The position numbers and the translations under genes were made by a program. From Somniosus microcephalus (taxonomy: Eukaryota), in the NCBI GenBank assembly GCA_052327205.1, contig CM126204.1, positions 187,922,001-187,986,000 of the forward strand: a stretch of 64,000 nucleotides of DNA. Reading direction: 5' to 3'. Shown in pieces: positions 5,649 to 63,359 of this stretch (the first letter of the stretch is position 1; each line of letters opens with the position of its first letter). The notes under the pieces are model-generated. The model saw nothing but the letters and a program-made list of their open reading frames with translations. It searched no databases and was not told the DNA's origin.

Positions 5649-6956
5649 ATGGGAGCCATTTATTTCCTTCCCATCTGGGCATTGGAGGAGCTCGAGCACC
5701 AGCTGTGTCAGCAGCAGAACCAGGAACAACAGCAGCACCAGCACCAGCAGCAGGAGCACCAGGCTGCTGCTCACCCACCTGAGGCTGCACAGGCCAGAAG
5801 GGACCAGCGCCTGGAAGCCTATCGGCGCAGGAGATACCCACCAAACAGGGTCTACAGGTGCAGGATCACCTATCTCAACATGTCTGAGCAGCAGTGCCAA
5901 AGGCGGTTCCGAATTTCTCGAGAATTAGTGACTGACATCTGCGCAATGCTACAGCAAGACCTGCTGCCCAGAGGACCAGGTGGACAAGCATTTCCAGTGG
6001 CCATCAAAGTCACCACCGCACTCAACTTTTTTGCCTCAGGCTCATTCCAGGGATCAGCAGCCGACATCAGCGGCATCTCCCAGGCGGCTGCACACATTTG
6101 CATCACGCAGGTAACCGATGCCCTCTTTGCCCTCACGTACAGTCACATCCATTTCACCAAGGATCAAGCAAGTGTCACGGCGCGAGCGGTTGGATTAACT
6201 CATCTGGCAGGCTTTCCAAGGGTGCAGGGCATCTTTGACTGCACACATATGGCCCTTAGGGCACCCCATTGCAATCCAGGTATTTTTGTCAACCTCAAGG
6301 GCTTCCACTCCCTCAACGTTCAGCTGGTGTGTGACCACAAGAAGGAGATTTTGCATGTTTGTGCCATGTACCCTGGCAGTTGCCATGACTCCTTCATACT
6401 GCGCCAGTCTAGTGTGTCTCCGCTATTCAGTCCACCAGACCAACTTAACGGATGGCTACTTGGAGACAAGGGCTATCCCCTGAGGACGTGCCTGATGACG
6501 CCGTTGAGACGGCCAGCCAACAAAGCTGAGGAGCGCTACAACTCCAGACACATTTCCACCAGATCCATTATCGAACAAACCATCGGTTTGCTGAAGAATC
6601 ACTTCAGATGCCTGGATAGATCAGGTGGAGCCCTGCAGTACTCAGCAGCCAGGGTCTCCAGAATCATCGTGGTTTGCTGTGCACTTCACAACATCGCACA
6701 GCGTCATGGCTTGCAGATTCCTGAGGACCAAGTGGCTCCTCACATATCCTCCTCAGATGAGGAGGAGGAGGAGGAGGGCGAAAATGAACATCCTGCAGAG
6801 GCCCATCAACCAGCGGCAGCATTACGTGAGAACATGCTGCCCGGGATGCAAGGAACGTACTCATCCTGGCCAGATTTGCTCAGCCTAGTCAGACACTTTT
6901 GCCTCGCAGCTTCTTACCTGAGCATCGACAATGGCCAAGACCCTGCGGATTTCTAG
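5649..6956 (+). CDS. Harbinger (HARBI1-like) DDE transposase
   Basis: Motifs [47 protein letters not shown] and CCALHN, plus an acidic tail. The extreme C-terminus is probably frameshifted. Start codon is inferred. Confidence 0.9.
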
Positions 6957-7136
6957 CTATTTGACCAGCATACTGACAATTGCAAGTAATCCTAAGCCCT
7001 CAATGTGAAAGTCCCATTCGCGAAATGACACATGCCACAACTACAGCAGTAGCCATCAGATTTTTTATTAACATTATTAATCTGATGGCTTTCTCTAACA
7101 ATACATCAAATTTCACCCAAGTGACTACCCTTGTAA

Positions 7137-9129
7137 CTACTTGTGCTTTATCTTCCTCTTACGCGTGCTCCTACGTAGTGCTTCCCCTGTGGCTTCAGCA
7201 GATGTGGAGGCTCCTTGCTCACTTTCCTGCTGTTCCTGTCTCGACACCTTTGGCGGGCATCCTCTGGGGTTGCGAGCCTGTGAGGGCTCGTCAACAGTCT
7301 GCTGCTCCTGCGGCTGTGCGGGGGTTGAGACGTCTATCTCACTTGGGTGTGGACTCCGGCAGGGCTCTGACCGAGTACTCTGCAGTGGCATGGAAATGTG
7401 AGCACTTGGAGAGGAACCCCCACTTCCTTGAGGTCTGCCACCAACCTCCCTCTCATGGGTCAGGTCCCCCTCAGCACCTTGCTGCACATCATGGGGGCCA
7501 TCTGCAATGGCAGTGCTACTCAAAAGGACTTCCATGAAGGTCTGGTTTCTCTGTTCAATAGATGCCCATCGCTCCTCAAGAGATGTCATTCTATTCTGAA
7601 CAATGACCATGTTTTCCATACCCTGGCGGCTAAGCTCCTCCATGGCCGTAGCCCTCCTCTCCTCTACCATAGCCATCCTCTCCTGTACGGTAGCCAGCCT
7701 TACCACAGAGGTAGCAATCGTTTCCACGGAGGTAGCCATCCTTTCCGTGTTGATGCGTTCATGTGCCAATGACTCCACAAAGGCTCTGTTCATGTTCGCT
7801 ATGGACTCCTCCATTTGCTGCACACTCGCAGCGACCCTAGAGACAAAACCTGCCAGAGACTCCTGCATCTGTGCCTGGAGTTCCAGCACCGCTCTTCTTC
7901 TGGATGGACCCAGAGGCAGAGGGTCGACATGCTGCTGAGCCGAGCTGGCAGAGTCCTACGCCCTCCGACTAGGACTCTCCACTGCTGTCCCTGTCTCCAC
8001 AGTCTGCTGATGCTCACTTGTGAGCTGTGATACACCAGGTGACAACACTATGTCCCGAAGGTCCCACCGAGGTGTGAGTGTCTGCGCTGGTGCTGGGTGC
8101 ACTGAATTCTGCTGACGCTGCGCCCTCAGAGGTTGCAGCTTCCTCTGAGGAGTCTGGCTGCTCAGCCTCTTCTTCCTGGCTAGGGGGGACGGATGCTTGT
8201 GATGGTCCTGTGGGGGAGTAAAGGAAAGAGTCAGAGATGTAGTGCAAAGGCTACATGCACATAACTTTTTGCAGATGCTCAAAAGTGCATCTGTTACAGC
8301 TTCACAATCATTATCAGCGACTCATGCAATGTCAAAGAGAGAGATGGGAAACTTTTCTGTCACCAGCTTGCTGTGTTGCACGCGTCTGTCCATCCACCAC
8401 GCGCAAATCATCCTCAATGCCCATGATTTCCAGGACGGCCTCCTCCCAGGGGGTCAGGTGGGCTATTGAGGGTGGCTCTCCTCCTGTCCTGGCTCGCTCT
8501 CTTTTGTTGTGAGCTCTCTTTTCCTGCAATGAGGGAGACAAGTGGAGGTTGAGTGAGAATGAAGGAGTGAGTGTAGAGATTGCATAGCATAGATACTTAG
8601 AAGGAGACAAAGATGGAGTGAGGTTGTAAGACCAATGGCCCTCCCTGTGTGTTGTCAGTTGTGTTCAAAGCATCAGAGTGAGAGGGAGTGTGAGGGCTGC
8701 ATGGTGGAATAGTTATGTGAATGTGAGCATAGAGGGAGAGGGAATGGGTAAGGGTGCATGGATGTCAGTGTCAAGTGGGATGTGGAGGAAGAGATTGCTA
8801 AAGCTGAGTGCTGGTGAGGAAAGGCAATGGGGATCAGATTGAGGGTGATGGGAAATTCATACTCACTTTTCCATTGCGCTGAAGGTCATGAAATCTTTTC
8901 CTGCACTGTATCCAGGTTCTGCGGGTGACTCCCAAGTAGTTGACCTCCTCAGCCACCTGCATCCACACAGCTTGGTCTGAGTGGGAGGCCTCTTCCTCCC
9001 TGATGAAGGGAACAGGACCTTCCTGTTGGCCCTAGCCCCATCCACCAATGCCTGCAGTGCTGCCTCGTCAAAGCGATGAGCTGCTCTTGCCCCCCCGCTT
9101 GTCATCTTTCCTGCAGGTCCCTCTGACAT
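7137..9129 (-). pseudogene. Harbinger Myb/SANT-like DNA-binding gene, 3 exons (~9129-8867, 8523-8364, 8207-7137), frameshifted
   Basis: RAAHRFDEAALQALVDG...VLFP...W...RTWIQCRKRFHDL is a trihelix/Myb motif with a frameshift near 8965. Exon 2 begins EKRAHNKRERARTGG. GT/AG sites present. The last exon has a coiled coil and a basic C-terminus. Confidence 0.82.
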
Positions 9130-12980: not shown

Positions 12981-14923
12981 GGCCCAGAAATTCGGGTCTC
13001 CACGGGTGAGTACGCACGGGGTACTCACCCGTAGGCCGAATGGAATTGCCGGTTTCCTGCATGCACTGCGCATGCGCGGGAAACTGGCACTTCCGATCCT
13101 CTGAACGAAGGGGTTCAGAGGTCAAACGCGTGCGCAGGGGAGGCTGCGCGTGCGCTTTGAACTTCGTTTTTTTTCCAGGTTTTTCCAGGAGGGTAAGCCT
13201 GCAGGATTTACACATTTAAAAAGCAGGCGTAAGGCCTGCTTTTTGCAAGGTAAGTGGTCAATTAATTAAAATTTAAAATTTTTTCCACGGGTTTATTATT
13301 TTTAAATACTTTAAAGCAAGGTAAGTTTATTTTTAGCCCCGTTATGATATAAAATTATTTTTTTCAAAAATTAAAATTATTGTTTAAAATAGTTATTTAA
13401 TGTAATTTATAGTTTACCAGCTTAAGTGCCCGGCGGTGCCGAGGCTTTCTCGAGGGCATGTTGTTGTTGGAAGAGAGAGAGAGAGAACGACTGGGGGGGG
13501 GGGGAGGGAGGGCGGGGAGGAGAAGGGAGGGTGGGGAAGGGAGGGCGGGGGGGGAAGGGAGAAGGGGGGAAGGGAGGGGGGAGGGGGGGAAGGGAGGGCG
13601 GGGGGAAGGAAGGGAGGGGGGAAAGGGGGGGGAAAAGGGGGGGAAGGCAGGGCGGGGGGAAGGGAGGGGTGGGGGGAGGGGGGAGGGGGAGGGAGGGCGG
13701 GGGGGAGGGAGGGTGGGGGGCCCCCCCGAGGGTCGCGCCCCCCCCCCGAGGGTCGCGGCCCCCCCCCCCGAGGGTTGCGGCCCCCGCAGAGGGTCGCGCC
13801 CCCCCCCCCCCGAGGTGAAGACTGCCGATTGCGGCTGTGCGAGACGGCCGGCGGGCCCGGTTGCCAGGGTAACCATTGACGCTCAGCAAGCCCCGCCCCC
13901 CGGCCGAGCCAGAGAGAGACGCCGCGTCTCAGCTCCTGCTGCGCGCGCACCCTTTAGTAAGGCAGCGGCGCTGGGCTGAGGCCCGCCCCTGCAGCCTTCG
14001 AGTGGGGCCGGGAGGTGCCTAGCTCGGGCGTGGGTGCGGAGGAGAAGCCGAGGCTTCGAGGCCTACCTGGAAAAACGGGGAAAGGTCAGAAAATTAATGA
14101 GATTAGATAAGTTAATTCGTTTCTAAATCATTTTTTTAAAAAACAATATGTGTTTTAAAAGCAACGTTTTTTTTAAAGACGCAGAAAGCGGGAAAAAGAA
14201 ATGAAAAGTTTGGAATCAAGATGGCGGCGACTCACCTCGGTTCAGAACGATAAGGCCCGGCCACACACGCACCGATTGGCCCGGCGGCACACGCCAGCAA
14301 CCCGGCGTACGATTGGTCGAGCTCGAGGTCACTCTGTCGCTAATGAGCGGATAATGAGATGCTAATGAGCAGAATGTTAAGGTTTTTCGGATACCACGGG
14401 CGCGATTTTAGCCCGGCCGAAACGTAAATACGCTTAAAACCGTCTCGGAAGCGTAAGCTTTCTTTGGAGGTAACGCGCGTGTAGGTACGCCCTGTAACTT
14501 TCGAGCACATAGCCCGCCAGACGCACACGCGATGACAGACAGAATGACAGAATGACAGATAGACAGAATGACAGATCGACCGATTTATATATATAGATTT
14601 AAAAAGTGTGATTAAAAAAAAAAATTATTTGAAGGTTTACTGCTATTTTGGGCCCGTAGTATTTATAAGTTTTGACAGGTCTACCTGTCAATCTTATGAA
14701 TGGGCTTTTCCCTCCTCCGATTGGCTGCCCATGGCTCATGTGATCCCAGGGGACGCATCGCACTAACTACACCCCTGGGACACGCAAGCACAGCGCGCCG
14801 GCAGCTGGGCCAGGTCCCGGAGCAGAATTCCACGGGGCCCTACAGCTCAACTGCCGGCGCGCAAGTTAAGTGCAGGTCGGGGGCTTGCACCCGCGGGAAA
14901 CTCCCGACCCGAATTTCTGGGCC
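12981..14923. mobile_element. Non-autonomous Harbinger-type element (MITE)
   Basis: 18-bp TIR GGCCCAGAAATTCGGGTC / GACCCGAATTTCTGGGCC. TSD AAT (12978-12980 and 14924-14926). Removing it restores the CR1 sequence CCACATAATAGGCTTG. Confidence 0.92.
13417..14597 (-). mobile_element. Non-autonomous Helitron (copy 1)
   Basis: Minus strand reads A|TCTATATA...CTGG|T (5'-TC, 3'-CTRR, A^T target, no TSD). Subterminal hairpin CGGC-GGT-GCCG. GACA microsatellite near the 5' end. Homologous to 26325-29942. Confidence 0.85.
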
Positions 14924-22619: not shown

Positions 22620-23017
22620 TAGGTGTTTTCACCTTACTAAATAATCTTGGAAATGTGCACCCAAGCCTTACAGATCTGTCACTAAACTTCCACTGTGACA
22701 GATAAAGAATTCAGAGAAAGTGAATCAAACTGCGGCATATTACAGCGGGGCCGGGGGCCGCGACTGGATCCAGCCAATTGCTCCAGGGAAAAGCTCATCT
22801 CACAAGCCAAGGGGGACGGGGCTGTGCGACAGGTCCCGCATAATGGGCTGGATCCTGGCCGCTGGGTGGGCCCCGACTCTATCGAGTGCTCAGTGTGACG
22901 CGTTGGATCTTTCTTGTCTGCGCCCGGCCTGTTTTCTCAGGAGCGCTGAGCCGATCGCTGGAGGCCTCGTTCCCGGTAACTAAATATTACTTAGTAATTA
23001 GCCTCCCCCACCCCGCC

Positions 23018-24535
23018 AACCCGGGGCCCGCTCAGCGGCCGGGATCTACCCACTGGGGCCCATCCAGCGGCCGGGATCTACCCCCGGGGCCCGCCAAATG
23101 GCCGGGATCTACCCCCCGGGGCCCTCCCCCTGTGGCCGGGATCTACCCCCTGGGGCCTACCCAATGGCTGGGATCTACCCCCCCGGGGCCCGCCGAATGG
23201 CCGGGATCTACCTCCCGGGGCCCGCCCAGAGGCCGGGATCTACCCCCGGGACCCGCCCAGAGGCCAGGATCTATCCCCCGGGGCCCTCCCCCTGTGGCCA
23301 GGATCAACCCCGGGGCCCACCCAGAGGCTGGGATGTACCCCCCCCCCAGGGCCCCGCCCAATGGCCGGGATCTACCACCCGGGGCCCGCCCAGAGGCCGG
23401 GATCTACCCGCCGGGGCCCTCCCCCTGTGGCCGGGATCTACCCCCAGGGCCTGCCCAGAGGCTGGGATCTAACCCCCGGGGCCCGCCCAATGGCGGGACC
23501 TACCCCCCGGGGGCCCCCAAAGAGGCCGGGATCTACCCCCCGGGACCCACCCAGAGGCCAGGATCTACCCCCGTGGCCCCCCCCCCCCTGTGGCCAGGAT
23601 CAACCCTGGGGCCCGCCCAGAGGCCGGGATCTAGCCCCTGGGGCCCCGCCCAATGGCCGGGATCTACCACCGGGGCCCTCCCGCTGTGGCCGGGATCTAC
23701 CCCCTGGGGCCCGCCCAATGGCCGGGCTCTACCGCCCCGGGGCCCGCCCAATGGCCGGGATCTACCACCAGGGCCCTCCCCCTGTGGCCGGGATCTACCC
23801 CCGGGGCCCGCCCCCTGTGGCTGGGATCTACCCCCTGGGGCCCGCACAATGGCCGGGATCTAACCCCAGGGCCCGCCCAGCGGCCGGGATCTACCCCCGG
23901 GGCCCGCCCAATGGCCGGGATCTACCCCCGGGGCCCGCCCAGAGGCCAGGATCTACCCCCCGGGACCCACCCAGAGGCCGGGATCTACCCCCCGGGGCCC
24001 TCCCCCTGTGGCCAGGATCTACCCCCTGGGGCCCACCCAATGGCCAGGACCTACCCCCCAGGGCCCGCCCAGAGGCCGGGATCAACCCCCGGGGCCCTCC
24101 CCCTGTGGCCAGGATCTACCCCCTGGGGCCCACCCAGAGGCCTGGATCTACCCCTGGGGCCCAACCCCTGTGGCTGGGATCTACCCCCTGGGGCCCGCCT
24201 CCTGTGGCCGGGATCTACCCACTGGGGCCCACCCAGAGGCCGGGATCTACCCCTGGAGCCCGCCCCCTGTGGCCGGAATCTACACCCTGGGGCCTGCCCC
24301 CTTTGGCTGGGATCTACCCCCTGGGGCCCGCCTCCTGTGGCCGGGATCTACCCCCTGGGGCCCACCCAGAAGCCGGGACCTACCCCCGGGGCCCTCCCCC
24401 TGTGGCTGGGACCTACCCCCGGGGCCCACCCAAAGGTCGGGATCTACCCCTGAGGCCCGCCCCCTGTGGCCGGGATCTACCCACCAGGGCCCACCCCCAG
24501 TGGCCAGGATCTACCCCCCGGGGCCCGCCCAGTGG
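23018..24535. repeat. GC-rich minisatellite, ~31-33-bp unit (GGCCGGGATCTACCCCCGGGGCCCGCCCAGA and variants)
   Basis: Directly visible tandem array of roughly 45 units with AAT/AGA/CTGT variants. Confidence 0.95.
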
Positions 24536-25826: not shown

Positions 25827-26375
25827 TGTCTACTCTATCAAAACCTTTCATAATTTTAAAGATGTATATTAGGCCACTCCTCGGCCTTCTTGACCCAGCC
25901 TGATATTTGCTCCCATGAAGCGCCTTGGGGTTTTCACTACGTTAAAAGTGCTATATAAATGCAAGTTGTTGAGTCATCATCATCATTCTTACATTACCTA
26001 AAGGCTTTCTCTTTTTTTCTCTCAAACTAACCCGAAATAAAGCTGCATTGTTTTAAACCAGATATTAAAACTGTCCAACCTAATGTTTATCTCCAGATTC
26101 CCGTTTCCAAGTTTAGCCTTGAGTTCACTTTTAAGTTATGAAAATATGTTTTTATCCTCATTATTGGAGAGTTTAGCCGTGCTTGAACGTCTGGCTCCTG
26201 GTGCTATCCAAACTCCAAAGCCTGCAACTTTGAAGGACATTTGTCCTAAAGCTTATCAAAGGCTGCCCTCAGCTGGCCATCCTTAAAATAGTTTCACAGG
26301 ACGTGCTTCCTCATACATTACATACTAGCTGGAGTGCCCGGCGGTGCCGAGGCTTTTTCTAGGGCATGTTGTTGT

Positions 26376-28135
26376 TGGAAGAGAGAGAGAGAGAGCGACT
26401 GGGGGGGGGGGAAGAGAGAGAGCGACTGCAGGGGGGGGAAGAGAGAGAGCGACTGGGGGGGGAAGAGAGAGAGCGACTGGGGGGGAAGAGAGAGCGACGG
26501 GGGGAAGAGAGAGAGCGACTGGGGGGGAAGAGAGAGAGCGACGGGGGGGAAGAGAGAGAGCGACTGGGGGGGGAAGAGAGCGACTGGGGGGGAAGAGAGA
26601 GAGCGACTGGGGGAAGAGAGAGCGACTGGGGGGGAAGAGAGAGAGCGACGGGGGGAAGAGAGAGAGCAACTGGGGGGGAAGAGAGAGCAACTGGGGGGGG
26701 AAGCGAGAGAGCGACTGGGGGGGAAGAAAGAGAGCGACGGGGGGGGAAGAGAGAGAGCGACTGGGGGGGAAGAGAGAGCGACTGGGGGGAAGAGAGCGAC
26801 TGGGGGGGAAGAGAGAGAGCGACTGGGGGGGGAAGAGAGAGAGCGACTGGGGGGAAGAGAGATAGCGACTGGGGGGGAAGAGAGAGCGTGACTGGGGGGG
26901 AAGAGAGAGCGACTGGGGGGAGAGAGAGCGACTGGGGGGGAAGAGAGAGAGGGACTGGGGGGGAAGAGTGAGAGCGACTGGGGGGGAAGAGAGAGAGTGA
27001 CTGGGGGGGAAGAGAGTGACTGGGGCGAAGAGAGAGAGACTGGGGGGAAGAGAGAGAGCGACTGGGGGGGAAGAGAGAGCGATGGGGGGGAAGAGAGAGA
27101 GAGCGACTGGGGGGAAGAGAGAGAGAGAGCGACTGGGGGGGAAGATAGAGAGAGCGACTGGGGGGGAAGAGAGAGAGACAGCGACTGGGAGGGAAGAGAG
27201 AAAGAGAGCGACGGGGGGAAGAGAGAGAGAGAGCGACTGGGGGGAAGAGAGAGAGAGCGACTGGGGGGGAAGAGAGAGAGAGCGACTGGGGGGGAAGAGA
27301 GAGAGAGAGTGACTGGGGGGAAGAGAGAGAGAGAGCGACGGGGGGGAAGAGAGAGAGCGACTGGGGGGGAAGAGAGAGAGCGACTGGGGGGGAAGAGAGA
27401 GCGCGACGGGGGGAAGAGAGAGCGCGATGGGGGAAGAGAGAGCGCGACTGGGAGGGAAAAGAGCGCGACTGGGGGGAAGAGAGCGTGACTGGGGGGGAAG
27501 AGAGAGCGCGACTGGGGGGAAGAGAGAGCGCGACTGGGGGGGAAGAGAGAGCGCGACTGGGAGGGAAGAGAGAGAGAGAGCGACGGGGGGAAGAGAGAGA
27601 GAGAGCGACTGGGGGGGAAGAGAGAGAGAGAGCGACTGGGGGGGAAGAGAGAGAGAGAGCGACGGGGGGAAGAGAGAGAGCAACTGGGGGGAAGAGAGAG
27701 AGCGACTGGGGGGGAAGAGAGAGAGTGACTGGGGGGGAAGAGAGAGAGCGACTGGGGGGAAGAGAGAAAGCGACTGGGGGGAAGAGAAAGAGCGACTGGG
27801 GGGAAGAGAGAGAGTGACTGGGGGGGAAGAGAGAGTGTGACGGGGGGGAAGAGAGAGCGCGACTGGGGGAGAAGAGAGAGCGCGACTGGGGGGGAAGAGA
27901 GAGCGCGACTGGGGGGGAAGAGAGTGCGCGACGGGGGAAGAGAGAGCGTGACTGGGAGGGAAGAGAGCGCGACTGGGGGGAAGAGAGCGCGACTGGGGGG
28001 GAAGAGAGAGCGCGACTGGGGGGGAAGAGAGAGCGCGACTGGGGGGGAAGAGAGAGAGCGATTGGGGGGAAGAGAGAGAGCGACTGGGGGTGAAGAGAGA
28101 GAGCGACTGGGGGGGAAGAGAGAGAGCAACTGGGA
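26376..28135. repeat. Purine-rich minisatellite (G6-8 AAGAGAGAGAGCGACT)n, ~20-28-bp units
   Basis: Directly visible, inside Helitron copy 2. Confidence 0.95.
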
Positions 28136-28319
28136 GGGGAGGGGGAGGGGAAGGGGAGAGCGGGGGAGGGGGAGGGAGGGTGGGGAGGAGGGGGGAGGGG
28201 AGGGTGTGAGGGGGAAGGGGGAGAGGAGGCGGAGGGGGAGGGGAGAGGGAGCGGGGGGGAGGGGAGGAAGGGGAAGGGGGAGGGGAGGGGGGGAGGGGAG
28301 GGAGCCCCCCGAGCACCGC

Positions 28320-29015
28320 CCGCCCGATCTCCCGAGGCTCCCCCCCACAATCTCCCGAAGCTCCCCCCCCCGATCTCCCGAGGCTCCCCCCACCCCCGAT
28401 CTCCCGAGGCTCCACCCCCCCGATCTCCCGAGCCTCCCCCCCCCGCCGATCTCCCAAGCCCCGCCCCCCGATCTCCCGAGCCCTGCCCCCCGATCTCCCG
28501 AGCCCCGCCCCCCCCGATCTCCCGAGCCCCGCCCCCCGGATCTCCCGAGGCTCGCCCCCCCCCCCGAGGCTCGCCCTCCACCCCCCGCGATCTCCCGAGG
28601 CTCGCCCCCCCCTGATCTTCCGAGGCTCGCCCCCCCCCGATCTCCCGAGGCTCGCCCCCCCCCGATCTCCCGAGGCTCGCCCCCCCCGATCTCCCGAGGC
28701 TCGCCCCCCCCCCGATCTCCCGAGGCTCGCCCCCCCCCGATCTCCCGAGGCTCGCCCCCCCCCGATCTCCCGAGGCTCGCCCCCCCCCGATCACCCGAGG
28801 CTCGCCCCCCCCCGATCTCCCGAGGCTCGCCCCCCCCCAATCTCCCGAAGCTCGCCCCCCCCATCACCCGAAGCTCGGCCCCCCCCGATCTCCCGAGGCT
28901 CGCCCCCCCCGATCTTCCGAGGCTCACCACCCCCCGCGATCTCCCGAGGCTCGCCCCCCCCCGATCTCCGAGGCTCGCCCCCCCCGATCTCCGGAGGCCC
29001 GATCTCCCGAGCCCC
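28320..29015. repeat. C-rich minisatellite (CCCCCCCGATCTCCCGAGGCTCG)n, ~22-24-bp units
   Basis: Directly visible, inside Helitron copy 2. Confidence 0.95.
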
Positions 29016-30206: not shown

Positions 30207-30706
30207 NNNNNNNNNNNNNNNNNNNNNNNNNNNNNNNNNNNNNNNNNNNNNNNNNNNNNNNNNNNNNNNNNNNNNNNNNNNNNNNNNNNNNNNNNNNNNN
30301 NNNNNNNNNNNNNNNNNNNNNNNNNNNNNNNNNNNNNNNNNNNNNNNNNNNNNNNNNNNNNNNNNNNNNNNNNNNNNNNNNNNNNNNNNNNNNNNNNNNN
30401 NNNNNNNNNNNNNNNNNNNNNNNNNNNNNNNNNNNNNNNNNNNNNNNNNNNNNNNNNNNNNNNNNNNNNNNNNNNNNNNNNNNNNNNNNNNNNNNNNNNN
30501 NNNNNNNNNNNNNNNNNNNNNNNNNNNNNNNNNNNNNNNNNNNNNNNNNNNNNNNNNNNNNNNNNNNNNNNNNNNNNNNNNNNNNNNNNNNNNNNNNNNN
30601 NNNNNNNNNNNNNNNNNNNNNNNNNNNNNNNNNNNNNNNNNNNNNNNNNNNNNNNNNNNNNNNNNNNNNNNNNNNNNNNNNNNNNNNNNNNNNNNNNNNN
30701 NNNNNN
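30207..30706. other. Assembly gap (500 N)
   Basis: Run of N. Confidence 1.
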
Positions 30707-35114: not shown

Positions 35115-35242
35115 GCCGACAGCGACTCTTTAATGTCCTCTCCATGGCGCTGGTGACTCTAATAGCCTGCGTGTCTCCTCCACACACCTGGCCTGCACAT
35201 TACCCCTGGCTGTCCCACTTGGCGTCCTGGTAACCGGGTTCC

Positions 35243-35728
35243 TCTCCGGCTCTCGCTCCTTCAAACTGCTCTCTCCAGCTCTCGCTCCTTCAAACTGCTC
35301 TCTCCAGCTCTCGCTCCTTCAAACTGCTCTCTCCAGCTCTCGCTCCTTCAAACTGCTCTCTCCAGCTCTCGCTCCTTCAAACTGCTCTCTCCAGCTCTCG
35401 CTCCTTCAAACTGCTCTCTCCAGCTCTCGCTCCTTCAAACTGCTCTCTCCAGCTCTCGCTCCTTCAAACTGCTCTCTCCAGCTCTCGCTCCTTCAAACTG
35501 CTCTCTCCAGCTCTCGCTCCTTCAAACTGCTCTCTCCGGCTCTCGCTCCTTTCAAACTGTTCTCTCCGGCTCTCGCTCCTTCAAACTGCTCTCTCCGGCT
35601 CTCGCTCCTTCAAACTGTTCTCTCCAGCTCTGGCTCCTTCAAACTGTCCTCTCCAGCTCTCGCTCCTTCAAACTGTCCTCTCCAGCTCTCGCTCCTTTCA
35701 AACTGTTCTCTCCAGCTCTCGCTCCTTT
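35243..35728. repeat. 29-bp minisatellite (CTCTCGCTCCTTCAAACTGCTCTCTCCAG)n, ~17 copies
   Basis: Directly visible. Central units are identical. Confidence 0.97.
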
Positions 35729-35804
35729 CCTCCTTTTTGGCGGTGCGGCTTTGCGCTGCTGTTTTCATGCCCCGAGTATCCCTGGAAATTGTTTCACCAA
35801 GCCT

Positions 35805-45872: not shown

Positions 45873-48800
45873 TCATAGAATCATAGAAAGTTACAGCACG
45901 GGAGGAGGCCATTTCGGCCCATCGTGTCCTCGCCAGCCAACAAAGAGCTAGCCTGCCTAATCCCACTTCCCAGCTCTTGGTCCGTAGCCCTGCAGGTTGG
46001 AGCATCCCAAGTGCACATCCAAGTACTTTTTAAACGTGGTTAGGGTTCCTGCCTCTACCACCCTTTCAGGCAGTGAGTTCCAGACCCCCGACAACCCTCT
46101 GGGTGAAGAAATTTCCCCTCAAATCCCCTCTAAACCTTCCCCAATTACTTTAAATCTGTGCCCCCTGGTTTTTGATCCCTCTGCTAAGGGAAATAGGTCC
46201 TTTCTATCCACTCGATCTATGCCCCTCATAATTTTATACACCTCAATAAGGTCTCCCCTCAGCCTCCTCCGTTCCAAGGAAAACAGACCCAGCCTATCCA
46301 GTCTTTCCTCATAGCTAAGATTCCTTACTCCTGGCAACATCCTTGTAAATCTCCTCTGTACCCTCTCCAGTGCACTCACATCTTTCCTGTAATGTGGTGA
46401 CCAGAACTGCATGCAGTACTCCAGCTGAAGCCTAACTAGTGTTTTATACAGATGAAGCATAACCCCCCTGCTCTTGTATTCTATGCCACGGCTAATAAAG
46501 GCAAGCATTCCGTAAGCCTTCTTAACCACCTTATCTACCTGGCCTGCTACCTTCAGGGATCTGTGGACATGCACTCCAAGGTCCCTTTGTTCCTCTACAC
46601 TACTCAGTGTCCTACCATTTAATGTGTATTCCCTTTCCTCGTTAGCCCTCCCCAAATGCATTACCTCACTTCTCCGGGTTGAATGCTATTTGCCACTGTT
46701 CTGCCCACCTGACCAATTTATTGATATTTCCCTGCAGTCTACAGATTCCTTCTTCAGTATCAACCACACAGCTGATTTTAGTATCATCTGCAAACTTCTT
46801 AATCATACCCCCTATATTCAAGTCTAGATCATTGATATATACCACAAAAAGCAAGTGACCTAGTACTGAGCCCTGCGGCACCCCACTGGAAACAGCCTTC
46901 CAGTCACAAAAACACCCATCAACCATTACTCTCTGCTTCCTGTCTCCGGGCCAGTTTTGAATTCAACTTGACACTTTGCCCTGGATCCCATGGGCTTTTA
47001 ACTTCGTGACCAGTCTGCCATGTGGAACCTTATCAAAAGCATGGCTAAAGTCCATATACACTACATCAAATGCACTACCCTCATCTACCCTCCTTGTTAC
47101 CTCCTCAAAAAAAATCAATCAAGTTTGTCAGACACGACCTTCCCTTAACAAATCCGTGCTGGCTATCCTTGATTAATCGGTGTCTTTCTAAATGAAGATT
47201 TATCCTGTCCTTCAGAATTCTTTCCAATAATTTTCCCACCACAGAGGTTAGGCTTGTAACGGAAATAGCCATATTCCAAGAGATACACCATCTTATGAAC
47301 GGAATTTTGACTTTATTAAAACATGAAAACTGGGTTTAAAAATCTAAAAGCCTCAACGGCACAGGCTGCAAACAGACAACAGGCTTTTGAGATAAGATCA
47401 GTTAACACAAGCTGTAAACACCATACAAGCTTTTGAAATGGGAATGGGTTATTGACAATAAAACAATGGCCCTATTGAAGCAAACCATTGGAGTTTCCAG
47501 TTTGGGAGAAACAATACCATTGCCCAGTTTAAAAAGTGTTATAAACTAACACTCCGGGAAACAGAAACTTAAAACATTAAACAACCATATGCCTTCATAA
47601 TATCACATCAAATGAAACAAGCAGACACAACGCCTGTGGGATAACCATTGAGATAGCTAGAAAACAAGTAAACACTCGGTTGAAGTGTTTTCAATTTACA
47701 TGTTGTAATATACAAACAGAAGACTTGGTAGATATGAAATCAAAAGATGCACCAAGCAATCACATTGTGTTTGTGTTGAACTTGGAACGCAAAGGAGTCA
47801 CGACGTCTGCTTCCAAACAGCTAGGTGATTTTAGAATTGAATGGAAGTCCTTCGATAAAAATGGCATAGAATAGATACATAAGTTATAACCGTTTTTTAT
47901 GATACGTTTTGAAACACCTATACAGCAGACAGGATTCTGAGAGTTGGCAGCTGAAATGACAGCAAAAATAGAAAAGAATTCAATAGAGAATGACTAGAGA
48001 TAATTAGCTTACATCAGCCAAAAACTTCAAAGAATAAGCCACTAAGAAAAGGTATAAAAATAGAGCTTTTCAGATGGAAAGTCAGAAGTCGCTGAAAGGG
48101 GCAAAGCGATTCTCTCACTCTTCAGAGGCATCTCTAAGTTTTTAACTCTGAGTCTCGGGGATCAAAAAGGTACTCTTATTTGATTTTGGTGGATATTCTG
48201 GATTAGAAATAAGATGAAATGTAAACATGTACGAAGTTAAGATTTGAGAATAAGGATCTCTGAGAATAAGAAATGTAAGCTATTTGTATTTTGAACTGTT
48301 AACAGCTGTTGAGTCAACTGCAACTTTAACTACATGTCGGTTCTTTAATAAATCTATATTTTTTTAGAATTGTCTCAGAGTACTTCTGTACCAAACTCGT
48401 GAACTCAATCTCTGTACACTCTTTGGTGAGGAGTTGCAGATTCTGGGGGAGTATTCGGACCCTCATAATATCCAGAAGGTTACAGTCTAGTTAAACTTAC
48501 TAAAGTGCTATCTGGAGGACGGTAACATCTTCAAGTCATTCCTTTCCTTTAGAGAGAGATAGTCTGGAACTTTAGACCCATTTAAGCATCTTATAGGATT
48601 CAGCTATCTCTAACTTTAATTGAAGGCGAACATCTGGGGAATGCACCTGATCCGGGGTAGCCCGTAAAGGGCTAGGACTAGTAATTATCGCTTCAGTTGG
48701 AGCACCACGATTTAATATCTACAAAGCATTCTGTCTGTATATTTTACAACATGTAAATTGAAAACACTTCAACCGAGTATTTACTTGTTTTCTAGCTATC

Positions 48801-49260
48801 TCAATGGTTATCGCACAGACGTCGTGTCTGCTTGTTTTATTTGATGTGATATTATGAAGGCATATGGTTGTTTAATTTTCTAAGTTTCTGTTTCCCGGAG
48901 TGTTAGTTTATAACACTTTAAACTGGGCAATGGTATGGTGTTTCTCCCAAACTGCAGACTTTCTGGAAACTCCAATGGTTTGCTTCAATAGGGCCATTGT
49001 TTTATTGTCAATAACCCATTCCCATTTCATGGTGTTTACAGCTTGTGTTAACAACTGATCTTATCTCAAAAGCCTGTGTTCTGTTTGCAGCCTGTGTCGT
49101 TGAGACTTTTAGATTTTTAAACCCAGTTTTCATGTTTTAATAAAGTCAAAATTCCGTTCATAGGATGGTGTACCTCTTGGAATATGGCTATTTCCTTTAC
49201 AGGCTGACTGGCCTGTAATTACTCGGTCTATCCTTTTCTCCCTTTTTAAACAAAGGTACC
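45873..49260 (-). mobile_element. CR1 LINE 3' portion, interrupted by the long-TIR element
   Basis: Minus ORFs 46119-46661 and 46666-46926 (QGSVLG, FADD). CATAGAATCATAGA tail. Resumes at 49202. Confidence 0.9.
47255..49201. mobile_element. Non-coding element with ~490-bp TIRs, TGT...ACA ends and 4-bp TSD (Ginger-like or LTR-derived)
   Basis: 47255-~47741 is the reverse complement of ~48709-49201. TSD GGCT at 47251-47254 and 49202-49205. Removal restores the CR1 sequence GGTTAGGCTGACTGGCC. Family assignment is uncertain. Confidence 0.85.
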
Positions 49261-50903
49261 ATTTTCACCATTGAAATATCTTCATTTAAACAGGGAGCAA
49301 TGAGCGCATTTGTTTGTGCCGACTATACTATTAGTATGAAGAGCAAAATTAAGTGTACAATAATAAAATCATTCATCCAGGGTGCCCAGCAGTCTAATCA
49401 TTTTGAATATTTACACTAGTCTGACACCCTCCTACAGTAACTCCACCAAATTCATCTCCCAAGTAGGAATGGAAAAAACAAAGAATGCTTAAAAGATAAT
49501 GATTCAGAATCATCTGATCAACCTTCCTCTTTCTTCAAAGGTAGTTGCAACTCCTTATACAGTATAAAGGAAAATGCAAGCAAATGGGGAAAACAAAAGA
49601 CCACTGTCCCATTAAGGGCTTACCAGCTCTCCGTTACCATACCAACATGTACCTTTTCAAAGCAGTAACTGAAGAGGGGATCGTGTTCTAAGACCATATC
49701 TCAGGTTTTATGAAAAAAATGCCAGCAAGGAAATGGAGTTAATGCAACGAGGAAGAAATTTAAACTACATCCCAAATCTCAGGAAGGCCATTGTTGCATT
49801 AAGTAATCTAACATTCTTCCTCTTGTGTTCGACCTCCAATATCATATTTCAGAATTACAAGCCTGTTTCAACAGTTTGGAAGATGGACTGCACAAAGTTG
49901 GACAATGCTGGGAAACAGTGCGAGCACCCACTGTACTTGTTAATGTAAAAGACCTATAGCAGGATATGGACTCCTGAATCCAGCTTCTGGCATCAACTTA
50001 CAATAGGAAGAGTCTGCTGGGAACGCTTCAATGAGGATGACAACCCAACTGACGCACATCTCAACCAAGGAATTTAAACATCAAATAGAAAATGTTGTGA
50101 AGCTAGAAGTGGAAGGCAATAACTGAGTGTGATCAGCTGAAGTATACAAAAAGTATTGAGAAGCTTTGCAAGAAGGCTGCAAACACAACATTTATTTAAA
50201 ATTTAGTTAATTATGAAGCAACTTTTCCAAATAAAACATTGTTGACAATTCTTCTTGGTGGTAACCAAATAAACTACCAACAGGAGGAAAAGAACCAAAG
50301 TGCCACACCAGAAAGTGATCAGAAGAGTGCTGTGGAGTAGGTGGAAGGAAAAAATCACAAGTAGCTACTGGAAAGTGCATGGGTTCTTCCTGTCCCTGCT
50401 TCAATGGATGGTAAGTGGAGGTTGAGCAAATGTGGAATTTACTACAAAAGCACATGTACATTTTGATTCATTTGGATGTACTTCTGCACAATTTACCTCA
50501 GTATTAAATCAGTTTGTCCTTCACCAGCAAACAACAGATTAAATTCCCATTATTTGCCTCTCAGAGGGCAAGATGATGTATTAAATGTCATATTTTGCCT
50601 TTGTGAAGTGGTTTACTGCCCTGGGACTGAATTGAGATAGTTAGGTGTCTTTCCTCTGCAGCCTTCTGTGGTTATCAGGAAACATCAACCCCAATATCTA
50701 GGTTGAACTGAAAAGCTCTCCAAAAAGGTACCAATCATTTTTTTTCAAAAAACTGTTTCAAACAACTCTTTTCGCATTCCAACTCTTAATTTTATTTTTG
50801 TTCTCAAATGGATACTGATGCTCTTTGCGCCCACACATTTTAAACTCCAGTTTTACAGGCCACTGATTCGCAATCTTAGAAATAATTAATTGAATAGACT
50901 TAC

Positions 50904-56715: not shown

Positions 56716-57592
56716 CTTCGAGCTGCAGAAGCAAGCTTCACTCCCTTGCAAGGGAGCCAGAAGAACTGTGCATCATTTCTTAGACAACACAGAACACAAG
56801 AAACCCAACTTACACGAACTGTTATGTATCTTTACATTGTTTTGGATTTTCAGAATCGATTCCTGTAAGCTGAGCTTTGCGCCTGTGATTCAGAGGCTGC
56901 TTCTTTGCTGTACATGGCCTCACAGAACTGCCCCAGGGGCCAACAATGACCCCACTTGCTGTAATTAATGTAGTCTTGCACTAATTGCAGTGTATGTACC
57001 TTTAAGAGCCCCTGTGCACTGTAATACCGGTAGTGACCACTCGGGTATATAAGCCTGTATAGCGTCTTGTATCTTTTAGTTCACCTCCAGACTTTGTTCA
57101 GTAAACACCTGTTAAACCAACTCCTGCATTCCGTGTCTCCATTAACACACGGATACAACAGTGGCGACGAATTGGAAACGGACTTACCTGCAATTCGGCA
57201 GCACCTCAAGGAAATCGATTCCTCAGACGAAGGTCGAAGAAAAAAAAACCAAAAAAAAAACCCTGTGGTTTCACCAGCTAGCCGGGCTGGTGGCAGGTAC
57301 TGCACTAATCCTTCCTGGGCAGCGGGCTGGGGCGCGATCGGGTGTCTCTGCAGCGGGGCCGAGCAGCGAGTCAGAAGGCGGAGGCAAACAGAGACGGAGG
57401 GTGGAGCACTCGGGAGACGGCCGGCGCTGCAAAGCAGGTCGGCATTCGGACCAAGCAGAGGGAGGGAAAAGTCCCAGAGAGTCCGGCGGGAACGAGTCTC
57501 CAACTATTAAAAATATCTGTGTAAATAAAAACCGCGGAGAACAGCGTTGTCAGCAGCGGCAGCGGCGGGAGGCGCCATTTTTTATTTTCAGG

Positions 57593-58782
57593 ATGCCTAA
57601 GACTGGCAATATTACTGCTTTCAATAGTGATATAGAGGATTGGACCACATATGTGGAAAGAGTGGAGGTATATTGCACAGCGAATGAAGTAAAGGATGAT
57701 AAAAAGGCATCGGTACTTCTAAATCTGATGGGCGCAAGGACATACGGGCTGTTACGAAACTTGATCACTCCAGCCAAACCGATGGACAAGAATTTTAAGG
57801 AGATTGTTGATACCCTACAGGAGCACTTAAACCCAACACCGCTGCTGATAGCGGAACGATTCAAATTCTTCAGGAGGAATCAGCACAAGAATGAAAGTAA
57901 TGCTGATTACCTCACCGAATTAAGAAAGCTGTCAAAGCACTGCCAATTCGGGGCAGGACTGGCAGATTCTCTACGAAACAAATTCGTCTGCGGTCTCCAA
58001 AGTGAAGGAACACAGAAAAGGCTACTTTCTGAGAAAGATTTGACACTGGACAAGGCTTTCAGTGTGGCTGTATCATACGAAGCAGCAGCAAGAGGAGCTG
58101 CAGAGATACAGCAAAAGCCACAGGACTTCGGCACCCATGAAATGACACGGGGTTTCGAGAGATGTTATCACTGCGGCAGATCCACCCATGACCAGATGGA
58201 CTGCTAGTTCAAGGACAAAGCATGCAGGCAATGCGGAAAGATGGGACACATTGCACGTGTATGCCGATCTGGAAACAAAAAATCCACTGACAGAAAAAAA
58301 AATCAATAAGGAAAAGTACAGAAAGGTACAAATGATGACGGACAGTAGCTCCGAAGACCAGAAGAGCGATAGCGACTCCGGAAACAAGAGACTAAGCTGT
58401 CTCAAATTACATAATGTAATTGCCAAAGAAGATTACCAGACCATTTGGGTTACCCTTAAGATAGCGGGGTCCCCAGTTAAAAATGGAGCTAGATACAGGA
58501 TCAGCTCTGACCGTCATAAGTCGACGGGATTACGAGTGGCTATTTCCGCATATACCTTTGAAGGACACATCCATTATCTTGAAGACATATACGGGGCAGA
58601 AGGTATACCCCAGAGGGAAAATAAAGGTGCCTGTTGTATACAACGGCAAGGAAATACAGAAGTTGTATTTATACGTTCTGCAAGATGGTGGTCCACCGTT
58701 GTTGGGACGTGAATGGATCAGGAAGATACGTTTAGACTGGCACTCCATTCAGGCACTGACGGTGACCAGTAAGAAAAAATGA
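57593..58782 (+). pseudogene. Gypsy gag (two zinc knuckles) + aspartic protease, disrupted
   Basis: MPKTGNITAF...ERFKFFRRNQ..ES, then CYHCGRSTHDQMDC*FKDKACRQCGKMGHIARVC. Protease motif ELDTGS. Stop at 58205 and frameshifts. Confidence 0.88.
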
Positions 58783-58816
58783 TGATGACGTCATACCTGA
58801 ACGATTAAAAGACACC

Positions 58817-61579
58817 TTGGCTAACGCCAAAGAAGTGTTTCAACAGGAACTAGGAACCTTGAAAGGCGTCACCGCCTCAATAAAAGTGGAAGATGCGGCA
58901 ATTCCCAAGTTTTTTAAGGCAAGGCCGGTGCCATACGCAATTCGTCCAGCAGTCGAGGCAGAGCTGGAGAATTTGGAAAAGGCAGGCGTGTTATCCAAGG
59001 TAGATTGGAGCGAGTGGGCAACACCCATCGTCCCGGTCATGAAGAAAACGTTGAATAATGATAAATCTGAAGAACAAAGAAAAATTCGCATCTGTGGGGA
59101 CTTCAAGGTGACTGTAAACCCGGTCCTTCACACGGTACAGTATCTTCCGAGGATAGAAGATATTTTCGCCTCACTATCCGGAGGGAAACGTTTCACAAAA
59201 ATTGGCATGGCACAGGCATATCTACAGATGGAGGTTGAGGAGGCCTCTAAAAAGTATCTCACGATAAACACAGACAAAGGCCTGTACCAGTACAATCGAC
59301 TGGTTTTCGGAGTAGCATCAGCTCCAGCTATCTGGCAAAGAGCTATGGAGCAAGTCCTGCAAGGGATTCCGGGGACTCAATGCTACCTAGACGACATCCT
59401 TGTAACAGGAGAAAACGACAACGAGCACCATGCCAATTTGGAGCAGGTGCTCACTAGGCTGAGAGAACGGGGCCTACGAGCAAATCGCCCCAAGTGCGAA
59501 TTTTTCCAGAAACAAATATCATATTGTGGCCATATAATTAACGAAGAAGGGTTGCATAAGTCACCTGAAAAAATTGAAGTGGTCATAAAAGCCCCAGCAC
59601 CTGAAAATGTCTCACAATTAAGGTCGTTCCTGGGATTGATAAATTACTATCATAAATTTTTACCGAACTTGTCAACTGTTCTGCACCCTCATAACGCACT
59701 GCTACAAACCGGAGTAATTTGGAAATGGAGCGAAGACTGTAAACGTGCCTTCCATAAATGCAAAGGCTTGATCACGTCCAAGGAAGTGTTGGCTCATTAC
59801 AACCCATCACTGCCAATCAGACTGGCGTGCGATGCATCCCCTTACGGCGTAGGAGCGGTATTATCGCATAGATTCCCTGATGGCTCGGAGCGGCCGATAG
59901 CTTTTGCGTCACGCTCATTGAATTCAGCTGAGCGTAACTATGCCCAGATCGACAGGGAAGCACTCAGCCTGGTGTGGGGAGTGAAGAAATTCAACCATTA
60001 CCTACACGGACAAAAATTTACCTTGTTGACTGACCATCAACCCCTCGTCCCCATATTCAACCCTAAAAAGGGCGTTCCCATTATGACAGAGCAAAGGGTA
60101 CAGAGGTGGTCCCTTTTCCTAGGGGCACACCAATATGACATAGAATACAAAGGATCAAAACAGCATGGGGATGCTGACGGTTTATCGCGCCTACCGTTGC
60201 CAACGATAGAAGAGGCATCTACAGTGGACCCAGTGGAGATGTTCCACTCAACCATAGTAGAATGTCTACCAGTAACAAATTCTACCATTGAAAAGGAAAC
60301 GAGAAATGACCCGACTCTCACACGAGTCTACGATTTAACGGTGAAGGGATGGCCAGCACATGGCGAACCACTGTTGCCAGCATTCTCGCAAAGAAGAGAA
60401 CAGCTGTCAGTGTGCCGAGGAACCTTGATGTGTGGATCCAGAGTGGTGATTCCACCCAAACTCCAGGATAAAGTGCTAAAGGAGCTTCACGAGGGGCATC
60501 TGGGTGGAGTGAAAATGAAGAACCTAGCCAGAGCGTTAGTGTGGTGGTCAGGTATCGATGGAGACATCGAAGAAATGACCAAGAGCTGTCTAGGATGCCA
60601 GAAGGTCCAAAACGCCCCACCACAAGCCCCTCTACATCCATGGGAGTGGCCCTCATCTCCATGGCAAAGGGTACATATCGACTTTGCTGGTCCATTTATG
60701 GACTCAATGTTCTTAATCGCGGTTGATGCACACTCCAAGTGGCCGGAGGTAATAAAGATGTCCTCCACCACCACGGAAAAAACCATCACAGTATTAAGGA
60801 CCATATTTGCCAGGAATGGGCTGCCTGAACAGATCTGTTCTGATAATGGACCGCAATTTGTGTCCGAAGAATTCAGGAAGTTCTTAAAAAACAATGGGGT
60901 TAAGCACTACACGTCCGCCCCATACCATCCCGCCACCAATGGATTAGCTGAAAGGTTTGTCCAGACCTTCAAGAAGGCCATAAAGGCCATGGGTAATGAA
61001 GACATAAATCTACAACATAAGGTAGATAACTTCTTGTTTGCATACAGGAATGCAACACATGTGGTTACAAACCAAACTCCCGCCATGATGTTTTTCAATA
61101 GAAGACTAAGATGCCGGCTGGATTTGATCAAGCCAAACATCAGAAGGGACGTAGAGAACCGGCAATTTCAAGGCATGAATGAAAGGCCAACTAGAACCTT
61201 CCAGATAGGTCAACAAGTTTTGGCCCGGGACTACCGTACCGAGAAATGGCAGCCTGGAACTATTTGCACACGACTAGGACTGCTGATGTATACCGTGGAC
61301 ATTGGTGAAAGCATAATAAGGCGCCATGCTGACCAGATCATAGAATCATCCGAAAAGGGACAACCTACACCACAACTCTATACGCCTAATGATGAAGCAG
61401 AGATACCCATAGTATCTACCTCCGATCCAGTGATACTGGAACCAGATGAACCCGACACTGGCATTCAAGCCGAATCGACCTTGCCAAAAGAACCTACTAC
61501 ACCACCGAAGACTACTACACCACCGAGGCGTTATCCGGACCGAGTCAGGAAGCCTCCAGAGAGACTGACTTATAATTGA
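58817..61579 (+). CDS. Gypsy pol: RT, RNase H, integrase (open 920 aa)
   Basis: WATPIVPV, RICGDFK, YLDD, CDASPYG, LTDHQPL, HHCC zinc finger, HIDFAGP, SDNGPQF and NGLAERFVQ. Confidence 0.93.
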   Translation: MANAKEVFQQELGTLKGVTASIKVEDAAIPKFFKARPVPYAIRPAVEAELENLEKAGVLSKVDWSEWATPIVPVMKKTLNNDKSEEQRKIRICGDFKVTVNPVLHTVQYLPRIEDIFASLSGGKRFTKIGMAQAYLQMEVEEASKKYLTINTDKGLYQYNRLVFGVASAPAIWQRAMEQVLQGIPGTQCYLDDILVTGENDNEHHANLEQVLTRLRERGLRANRPKCEFFQKQISYCGHIINEEGLHKSPEKIEVVIKAPAPENVSQLRSFLGLINYYHKFLPNLSTVLHPHNALLQTGVIWKWSEDCKRAFHKCKGLITSKEVLAHYNPSLPIRLACDASPYGVGAVLSHRFPDGSERPIAFASRSLNSAERNYAQIDREALSLVWGVKKFNHYLHGQKFTLLTDHQPLVPIFNPKKGVPIMTEQRVQRWSLFLGAHQYDIEYKGSKQHGDADGLSRLPLPTIEEASTVDPVEMFHSTIVECLPVTNSTIEKETRNDPTLTRVYDLTVKGWPAHGEPLLPAFSQRREQLSVCRGTLMCGSRVVIPPKLQDKVLKELHEGHLGGVKMKNLARALVWWSGIDGDIEEMTKSCLGCQKVQNAPPQAPLHPWEWPSSPWQRVHIDFAGPFMDSMFLIAVDAHSKWPEVIKMSSTTTEKTITVLRTIFARNGLPEQICSDNGPQFVSEEFRKFLKNNGVKHYTSAPYHPATNGLAERFVQTFKKAIKAMGNEDINLQHKVDNFLFAYRNATHVVTNQTPAMMFFNRRLRCRLDLIKPNIRRDVENRQFQGMNERPTRTFQIGQQVLARDYRTEKWQPGTICTRLGLLMYTVDIGESIIRRHADQIIESSEKGQPTPQLYTPNDEAEIPIVSTSDPVILEPDEPDTGIQAESTLPKEPTTPPKTTTPPRRYPDRVRKPPERLTYN

Positions 61580-63359
61580 TTAACTGCAGCAAATGTGTAG
61601 ATTATTGTTCTTGTAAACATGTTAATGATTACTTAAAATGTTATGTACTAATTATCTAAAAGGGGAGGAATTGTAGTGTATGTACCTTTAAGAGCCCCTG
61701 TGTACTGTAATACCGGTAGTGACCACTCGGGTATATAAGCCTGTATAGCGACTTGTATCTTTTAGTTCACCTCCAGACTTTGTTCAGTAAACACCTGTTA
61801 AACCAACTCCTGCATTCCGTGTCTCCATTAACACACGGATACAAAACTAATGGTTTCCGGAATAAGAGATATCACACAATCCAGAAGTTTACAGACTAGT
61901 GCAATTATTAACTTTATTTACAATTAAACAATAATAGGAAGAATATTTGGAAAACCTGTTGTAAAAATATTTCTCAAGCAGGGAGGGATAATAGTTCTCT
62001 CCTTTGATCTCTTTGAAAGAACTCCATCACCTAAGTTGTCAAACCCAACACTCCTCGGCATAAACTGTCTAGAACCAGAAAATATATTGAGATCTTTCTA
62101 CGCAGGTCAGAAATTACTTAGTTCATTTGGGAGATTGAAAGAACTCCAAAAAGTTAGCTAAAAGGAACAGTGTGCTGTTACTTTCCTCCACTCCTCCAGC
62201 AGCATACTGAACTGTACATGAAGGATGAAGAAATGAGAAAGAGATAGCAGCTAGGAAAGCTGCATTCTATTTGAAAGTTAGGTTTATACATTTGCAGTTC
62301 AACAAGTGAAAGAGGACTTATTAAAGCAAATATGTGGTCATTTAAAAATGTATATAAAACTGGAACTGTGTGTGAATTTTTAAGTTCTTAATAGATCACT
62401 CAACATACAAATCACCAAGCAAAACAAGACAAGTCCTCAACATATAAATTTTAATTTGTAAAATTTGTCAATTAAAAAAAGAATCAATTCAGTTATAAAA
62501 GTTTGAAAAGCAAAAAGGAACAGGAAAAGAAAAAACACTTTTTTCTTGAAAATACCGTCTTAAGCAAATGTACCAAGAGCAAGTTTCAAAGAACTTGATT
62601 TTATGTGGGTTTTCAATTGATGAGGAAATCATACACACACACACACAATCACAAGACTATGGAAAATACAAAAGAAACCGCAGCAACAAGGCAGTGACAG
62701 TATAACTCTGGAGTTGTGTCCAGACCCGACTCAAGAGCGGTGAGAAAATTCCTGGCGGAGACAGCTTCACCCTGCTTACCCAATTGACGATACGTGAAAC
62801 CTAACTCCACCGCACATAACTCCTGCACAGTGCAAACCTTCTGGACACTTCACTAATTGAAGCCAAAATCTTTCAGAAAGAGTTGGAGACAGAAACTGTT
62901 GGAAGTTTACACACAGAAACGGTTTTACAGGGGGGGGGGGGGGGGGGGGGAAAAGAGATCATAAACCTCAACACAAATTATGAAACATTTCCTTTTTTAA
63001 GCTGTTGACAAAATGTGCTGTAAATAAAATAATTACTTCAAGAATTATTTAGATAAATTTATTGGAAAAATAAAATGCCCCTCAATAGATTGTACAAAAT
63101 GACTTGGGAGAAGGCTCGCCGGTTTATACAAGCTCCCGAATCATTTAGGCTCGTTACTTCACCATGAACATGGGCACCATGCAATTCAAATTCACTCTCC
63201 ACACAAAACATTCATTATTACATTTGCAATGCAGTGATCGAGCCAGCCATCAACTTCAATCTCAGGGCAAGCATGCAGTTAAAGCACCGACAGGTAAAGG
63301 TTTCTCCTATGATGTACTTTACAGTGAACAGATTTCACAAGAAACTTTACTGAACGCAA

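Follow-up and report, generated by a model that had tools for sequence, protein, structure and literature searches.

The window (the whole 64,000-nucleotide stretch of Somniosus microcephalus DNA that was analysed) carries a real and unusual insertion, probably LTR-derived, with two outward-facing ends of the U3 type. In its behaviour it resembles elements inserted by an integrase, and in its appearance a TIR element. Its structure is that of a single insertion: the target-site duplication (TSD) is 4 bp long, the termini are TG...CA, and both carry the same sequence. The LTR identity is suggested by motifs and base composition.

Architecture and insertion site

The element covers 47255–49201 (1947 bp), starting with TGTAAC and ending with TTTACA. 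It is bounded by two inverted arms, at 47255–47741 (+, 487 bp) and 48709–49201 (−, 493 bp), which were identical at 456 of 475 aligned positions. The differences were 19 substitutions (11 transitions and 8 transversions, one at a CpG) and six indels of 2–11 nt. The left arm has the outward attachment end TGTAACG. The right arm repeats, in inverted orientation, the initial ~490 bp of the U3-like block described below, and its outward attachment end is TGTAAAG. The coordinates, the inverted arms, the scattered substitutions and the small indels given in the original prediction were all recovered.

An exact duplication, GGCT, flanks the element at 47251–47254 and 49202–49205 (+), within the target AGGCTG. 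It was the sole matching duplication among the lengths of 3–8 bp tested. On the minus strand the flanks encode CR1 ORF2; each translated alone, they read ...VPLFKKGEKDRPSNYRPVS (ending NYRPVS) and LTSVVGKLLE..., and the CR1 frame resumes across the site. The flanks are thus two parts of one minus-strand CR1, and there is a single target site with a 4-bp duplication, in agreement with the earlier view that GGCT splits a CR1. The 3' part of this host LINE (ORF2 from LTSVVGK onwards) lies at 46119–47254 (−), where 47108–47254 matched RVT_1 at E=1.4e-4, below the curated cut-off. The 5' stub, VPLFKKG...NYRPVS, was recognized by separate translation at 49202–49262 (−). An unbroken CR1 at about 18765 of the window carries the homologous site. 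The window has several CR1 copies, 68–85% alike, and the host appears to be a vertebrate rich in CR1.

The LTR-like unit

Positions 47255–48484 (+) read as a whole LTR-like unit of 1230 bp, TGTAACG...GGTTACA, with a putative U3-R-U5 order. The unit has the features of an LTR: TG...CA short inverted repeats, a TATA box (TATAAAA, 48053–48059, +) and, near the 3' end, a polyadenylation signal (AATAAA, 48347–48352, +), followed by a T-rich stretch. The terminal GTTACA (48479–48484, +), a putative U5 attachment end, is now internal to the element. All three interior motifs were present as predicted from the sequence, GTTACA being weak evidence by itself, as 995 of 5000 shuffles of the interior contained it. 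It is the combination that is unusual: TATA, AATAAA and GTTACA in LTR order and spacing arose in 33 shuffles out of 5000 (in 78 when both strands are counted), and the same spacing in one of 130 real 967-bp stretches of the window. The spacing limits were chosen with the sequence already seen, so that the resulting p of about 0.007–0.016 is a post hoc value.

The base composition pointed in the same direction. The A-over-T bias of the left arm equalled that of the unique continuation at 47742–48052 (+; Fisher p=1.0), an A-rich, U3-like stretch, and broke at the TATA box (p=0.0003). An unguided A/T change-point scan located the best break at 48110 and not where the arm ends, and none of 500 permutations reached it. 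Change-points as strong occurred in 12 of 87 real 1230-bp stretches of the window, so only the position of the break is informative. Since the A bias crosses the arm end and breaks after the TATA box, the left arm appears to be the front (the first 487 bp) of a U3-like block of ~800 bp, with 40% A and 24% T, and not a separate TIR. Behind this block there would be an R of roughly 290 bp and a U5 of about 115 bp. The folding of the R region was at chance level (z=0.04).

The ends were compared with published LTR attachment motifs. The rGmr1 motif TGTNANR was found in full at both outer ends, and CGTNACA matched the inner end at six of seven positions. The element ends also fit the class III TGT/ACA motif. 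A length of 1230 bp with a 4-bp TSD falls inside the range of foamy-like LTRs (960–1634 nt, 4 bp).

Taking all LTR readings together, we consider an LTR origin of 47255–48484 likely; this is a statistical inference, and the grades given here and below are judgements. As neither a parent element nor a second copy was seen, the LTR identity rests on motifs and composition picked after seeing the sequence. The surroundings are not those of a solo or proviral LTR: at its inner end the unit adjoins neither its own TSD nor a polypurine tract (PPT) or primer-binding site (PBS). With no TSD directly at both of its ends, the unit also differs from a standard solo LTR.

The inner junction and the spacer

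Right after GTTACA the sequence continues with GTCTAGTT... On the plus strand no TGG primer-binding site followed GTTACA, and on the minus strand no purine tract preceded TGTAAC, whereas the ordinary Gypsy of the window displays a clear PBS and PPT. The lack of both signals at this inner end tells against an in-place flip of a proviral LTR, whichever way it was oriented, and in-place LTR inversion was rejected on these grounds. The four bases next to GTTACA, GTCT, match the TSD at three of four positions, which we estimate to happen by chance in about 5% of cases; the resemblance is probably fortuitous. It had suggested that a solo LTR landed precisely on the TSD of an earlier element of 713 bp, an idea that we discarded, as the earlier element would have no CA end. 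A 22-bp match of the GTTACA junction to 61879–61900 was also dismissed (14 of 100 shuffles scored as well).

Between the LTR-like unit and the right arm there is a 224-bp spacer (48485–48708, no strand assigned) with 43% GC. Compared with the rest of the LTR, it had no significant similarity at the DNA level (77 of 300 and 262 of 300 shuffles scored as well), nor at the protein level with the LTR beyond the arm (p=0.50 and 0.24). No significant similarity was found to the rest of the window either. The spacer is less A-rich than the U3 (p=0.03). Given this lower A content and the lack of LTR similarity, it is not clearly a variant U3, and its presence requires an extra step. A weak, imperfect hairpin was predicted at about 48540–48630 (RNA z=−1.7, 10 of 200; DNA −6.9 kcal/mol). 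An 11-bp motif, CACGACGTCTG, was found at 47799–47809, in the unique part of the U3, and at about 48816–48826 (−) in the right arm, and is altered in the left arm (E=0.73, possibly chance).

Coding potential and outside matches

The element had been described as lacking a long ORF, and this was confirmed. The longest ORF has 97 aa (47581–47874), a length reached in 334 of 1000 shuffles. The stop-poorest long frame, with three stops in 162 codons, spans the right arm and the spacer, and was equalled in 566 of 1000 shuffles. No Pfam cut-off was reached by the 25 frames run, out of 52 frames of at least 25 aa. Word-based searches of the element found no homologues. The same was true for a phmmer search of one read-through frame of 47257–48483 against 1.84 billion representatives, and the best score of an Atlas search, 0.81, was at chance level. 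No integrase-like transposase was detected inside the element. With ORFs at chance level and no Pfam or homologue matches, hidden coding sequence was rejected. These coding and homologue negatives carry no information on the genomic copy number.

In Rfam no family came near its cut-off, and a tRNA scan of the element was empty. A prokaryotic origin was discarded: GTDB gave no match apart from one 22-mer, and there was none in phages or plasmids. Short arm motifs were searched in the supplements of shark and fish ERV studies, where line wrapping can hide matches. PMC4422223 had none, the sole match in PMC10699275 was an unrelated 8-mer, and the 12 files covered of the 14 in PMC10435555 had none.

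Divergence of the arms

The differences between the arms are unevenly spread. Nucleotides 125–317 of the arm (47379–47571, 193 bp) have no substitution relative to the right arm (p=0.001), yet hold five of the six indels (p=0.04). The same segment is rich in degenerate AAACA..CCAT-like repeats. The innermost 27 nt of the arm contain five of the 19 substitutions (247 of 100000), and event types occur in runs (961 of 100000). All these tests of uneven divergence were post hoc. The pattern suits arms that were already unlike at insertion, or partial gene conversion, better than the even decay of identical copies, and two different templates fit the arm differences better than such decay. As an in-window control we considered the LTR pair of the Gypsy element (four differences, no indel), which at 175 bp is too short to demonstrate that the arms are rich in indels.

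The K2P distance between the arms was 0.032–0.041. If the arms were once identical, this corresponds to about 32–41 My at the rate assumed for catshark in PMC10699275, and to 73–94 My at that assumed in PMC4422223. If the element is instead a chimera with two U3 ends, both ranges are upper bounds.

Other elements of the window

A full-length Gypsy element lies at 56986–61846 (+). It has 175-bp LTRs with four differences, a 5-bp TSD (CTAAT), a PBS-like TGGCGACGA and a PPT. Its RT-RNaseH-integrase ORF spans 58766–61579, while stops and frameshifts interrupt the gag-pro region. At its ends it is similar to the Mag C attachment motifs.

At 5538–6956 (+) there is a DDE_Tnp_4 transposase ORF of 472 aa, which we take to be Harbinger-like. 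It faces a 272-aa ORF (7137–7955, −) without a Pfam match. No 12-bp inverted repeat with copies more than 1.5 kb apart was found around it in 4900–9000. GC-rich tandem or low-complexity arrays, with units of about 25, 29 and 32–33 bp, occupy 13460–13810, 23000–24530, 26350–29010 and 35184–35735. A dispersed repeat family, which we read as SINE-like, is present in both orientations at 24974, 33543, 35808, 42089, 54157, 63391 and other places. A scaffold gap of 500 N is located at 30207–30706.

Origin of the element

Our tentative preference is for a chimera that was dead on arrival, probably a one-off accident of replication: DNA of an LTR element acquired two U3 attachment ends, and its own integrase inserted it a single time. 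Positions 47255–48484 would then be one whole LTR of an element with a 4-bp TSD, nearest in type to a class III/foamy-like ERV or to a Gypsy with a 4-bp TSD. Before integration, its U5 CA end may have been joined to DNA of the opposite orientation, namely the spacer and the initial ~490 bp of another U3 related to its own; this joining is modelled on retroviral behaviour. The resulting linear DNA, with two U3 attachment ends, would have undergone concerted insertion into the CR1 by the cognate integrase. Further retrotransposition is not expected of a unit without PBS, PPT, second R and ORF. The options first put forward included a rearranged LTR that carries the same attachment end at both termini and was inserted as one unit. 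This option gains support from the motif spacing, from a composition break that lies at the TATA box and not where the arm stops, and from the single TSD of 4 bp.

Related events are known from retroviruses. Strong-stop DNA can switch to the co-packaged genome, according to passages of PMC9278108, and autointegration gives inverted products, according to passages of PMC2644782. The HIV switch, seen in asymmetric-LTR proviruses, yields deleted direct LTRs and not germline insertions with two U3 ends, while here the partial U3 is inverted. The inversion products of autointegration are unintegrated circles and the element is an integrated germline insertion, but both have an LTR end joined to the opposite strand. 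The passages of the two papers describe no integrated product with two U3 ends. In the literature searched, which was largely open-access, there was neither a precedent for a natural insertion of this kind nor a description of such a unit; an entry in Repbase or Dfam may exist.

Among fish and amphibians, the LTRs of class III or foamy-like ERVs (NviFLERV, AciFLERV, AliFLERV) are 960–1634 nt long against 1230 bp here, and have a 4-bp TSD, TGT...ACA ends, and TATA followed by AATAAA. They are found solo or as direct repeats whose 5' copy is followed by a PBS; the element instead has the spacer and an inverted partial U3, and no PBS, PPT or genes. The agreement is in size, ends and TSD length only, a likeness by description and not by sequence similarity. 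Foamy-like ERVs are further defined by Pol phylogeny, a GGGTG PPT-LTR junction and a tRNA PBS; the element has neither coding nor internal sequence. The LTRs of rGmr1-type fish Gypsy elements share the attachment motifs, TGTNANR in full at both outer ends and CGTNACA at six of seven positions. The A-rich U3 of the element fits them less well, since rGmr1 has a U3 described as T-rich; the mean length of the training LTRs is 695 nt.

Two further points count against the chimera. A one-off is less likely than a family member to be met in a random window, and an old TIR family that underwent partial gene conversion should likewise have unevenly diverged arms.

It is possible, if doubtful, that the LTR-derived two-arm unit belongs to a multi-copy family in which both ends are U3 attachment sites. 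Either the 1947 bp are a compound solo LTR, its U5 extended by the spacer and the inverted U3, and full-length copies carry two of them in direct repeat around gag-pol; or the unit was moved as DNA by a Ginger-like DDE enzyme recognizing TGTNR ends. The motif spacing and composition speak for a family just as they do for the chimera. Arms kept apart over the history of a family would diverge unevenly and fade at the inner edge, and members of a family should be met more often than one-offs. Bao et al. (PMC2836005) have proposed that the TIRs of Ginger1 derive from two LTRs in opposite orientation, and the element has this geometry without an integrase gene. The following points speak against a family. 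Excision is not normal for integrases (PMC2836005). A compound LTR would make the genomic RNA fold into a duplex of ~490 bp, and no one-way A-to-G pattern was seen by eye among the substitutions. The literature searched held no precedent for such a family, and the window no second copy, which in 64 kb is weak evidence on copy number.

A later chromosomal rearrangement of an LTR or provirus that had integrated normally is in our view rather unlikely. The 6-bp inverted repeat TGTAAC/GTTACA would have mediated an inversion or a template switch during replication, leaving the TSD in place and an inverted U3 piece at the right end. This repeat is a microhomology exactly at the boundary, and the three-of-four agreement of GTCT with the TSD would also suit such an origin. 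In guppy, PrERV-1, a fish foamy-like ERV, has LTRs in opposite orientation, with an inverted 5' LTR of unclear cause in the account of PMC5210030. PrERV-1 is a complete provirus, for which the passages mention no single TSD enclosing a pair of U3 ends; the element has no internal genes, and one of its LTRs is partial. In-place inversion predicts either a TGG PBS following GTTACA or, on the minus strand, a PPT preceding TGTAAC. Both are absent, and arms identical at formation should have diverged evenly, unlike those observed.

An undescribed non-autonomous TIR DNA transposon with ~490-bp TIRs, either Ginger-like or from another superfamily with 4-bp TSDs such as AcademX, and with an interior that is LTR-like by chance, seems improbable. 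TGTAA at both ends fits the TGTNR termini of Ginger1 and Ginger2/TDD, which share the TIR architecture and the 4-bp TSD, and the arm homology fades inward. Other superfamilies have long and variable TIRs (765 bp and more in Galileo). The Ginger option of the original prediction was nevertheless weakened by the target site and the arms. Ginger1 has TSDs of CCGG or CCGT/ACGG and TIRs of about 40–270 bp, and Ginger2/TDD has an AT-rich RTATAY target and TIRs of 45–297 bp. Here the TSD is GGCT/AGCC within AGGCTG, and the arms of 487 and 493 bp are 1.6 times as long as the longest TIR listed. The autonomous Ginger families listed come from invertebrates, protists and a fungus. The element is further set apart by the lack of a transposase and by its LTR-like interior, where chance would have to account for the order of the LTR motifs as well as for the change of composition at the TATA box.

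Other groups were compared by the same features. GingerRoot/IS3EU and Polinton elements have 6-bp TSDs and mostly TA..TA or AG..TC termini, which the element lacks. IS481EU and the prokaryotic IS have TIRs mostly below 50 bp, a single transposase, and parabasalid or prokaryotic hosts, and do not correspond to it. AcademX has TSDs of 3–4 bp, a range that includes the TSD length found here, together with family-specific termini and transposase. DIRS-type elements have no TSD, and their internal region is complementary to the ends of the outer repeats. The element has a TSD and an internal complementarity of just 6 bp. The literature drawn on in the analysis also included PMC5512871, PMC6839031, PMC3601003, PMC11979771, PMC10045372, PMC4168063, PMC2857682 and PMC11899658.

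Long inverted repeats are error-prone on some long-read platforms, and the window has a scaffold gap, but an assembly fold-back artefact is very improbable in view of the 10- and 11-nt arm indels and the absence of any duplicated flank, together with the 19 arm substitutions, the arms that stop exactly at the TSD, and the CR1 frame that continues across the site.

Significance

Copy number decides between a one-off chimera and a multi-copy family. A one-off would be a germline fossil, indicating that the integrase of an LTR element can insert DNA with two U3 ends. It would also be a curiosity and an annotation trap, which annotation tools would call a TIR transposon. If the element belongs to a family, it would be a natural example of the step from LTR to TIR that was hypothesised for the origin of Ginger1 in PMC2836005, and would make testable the proposal given there that TIR transposons arise from two opposed LTRs. 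LTR-derived ends would then be able to spread without the normal direct-repeat layout.
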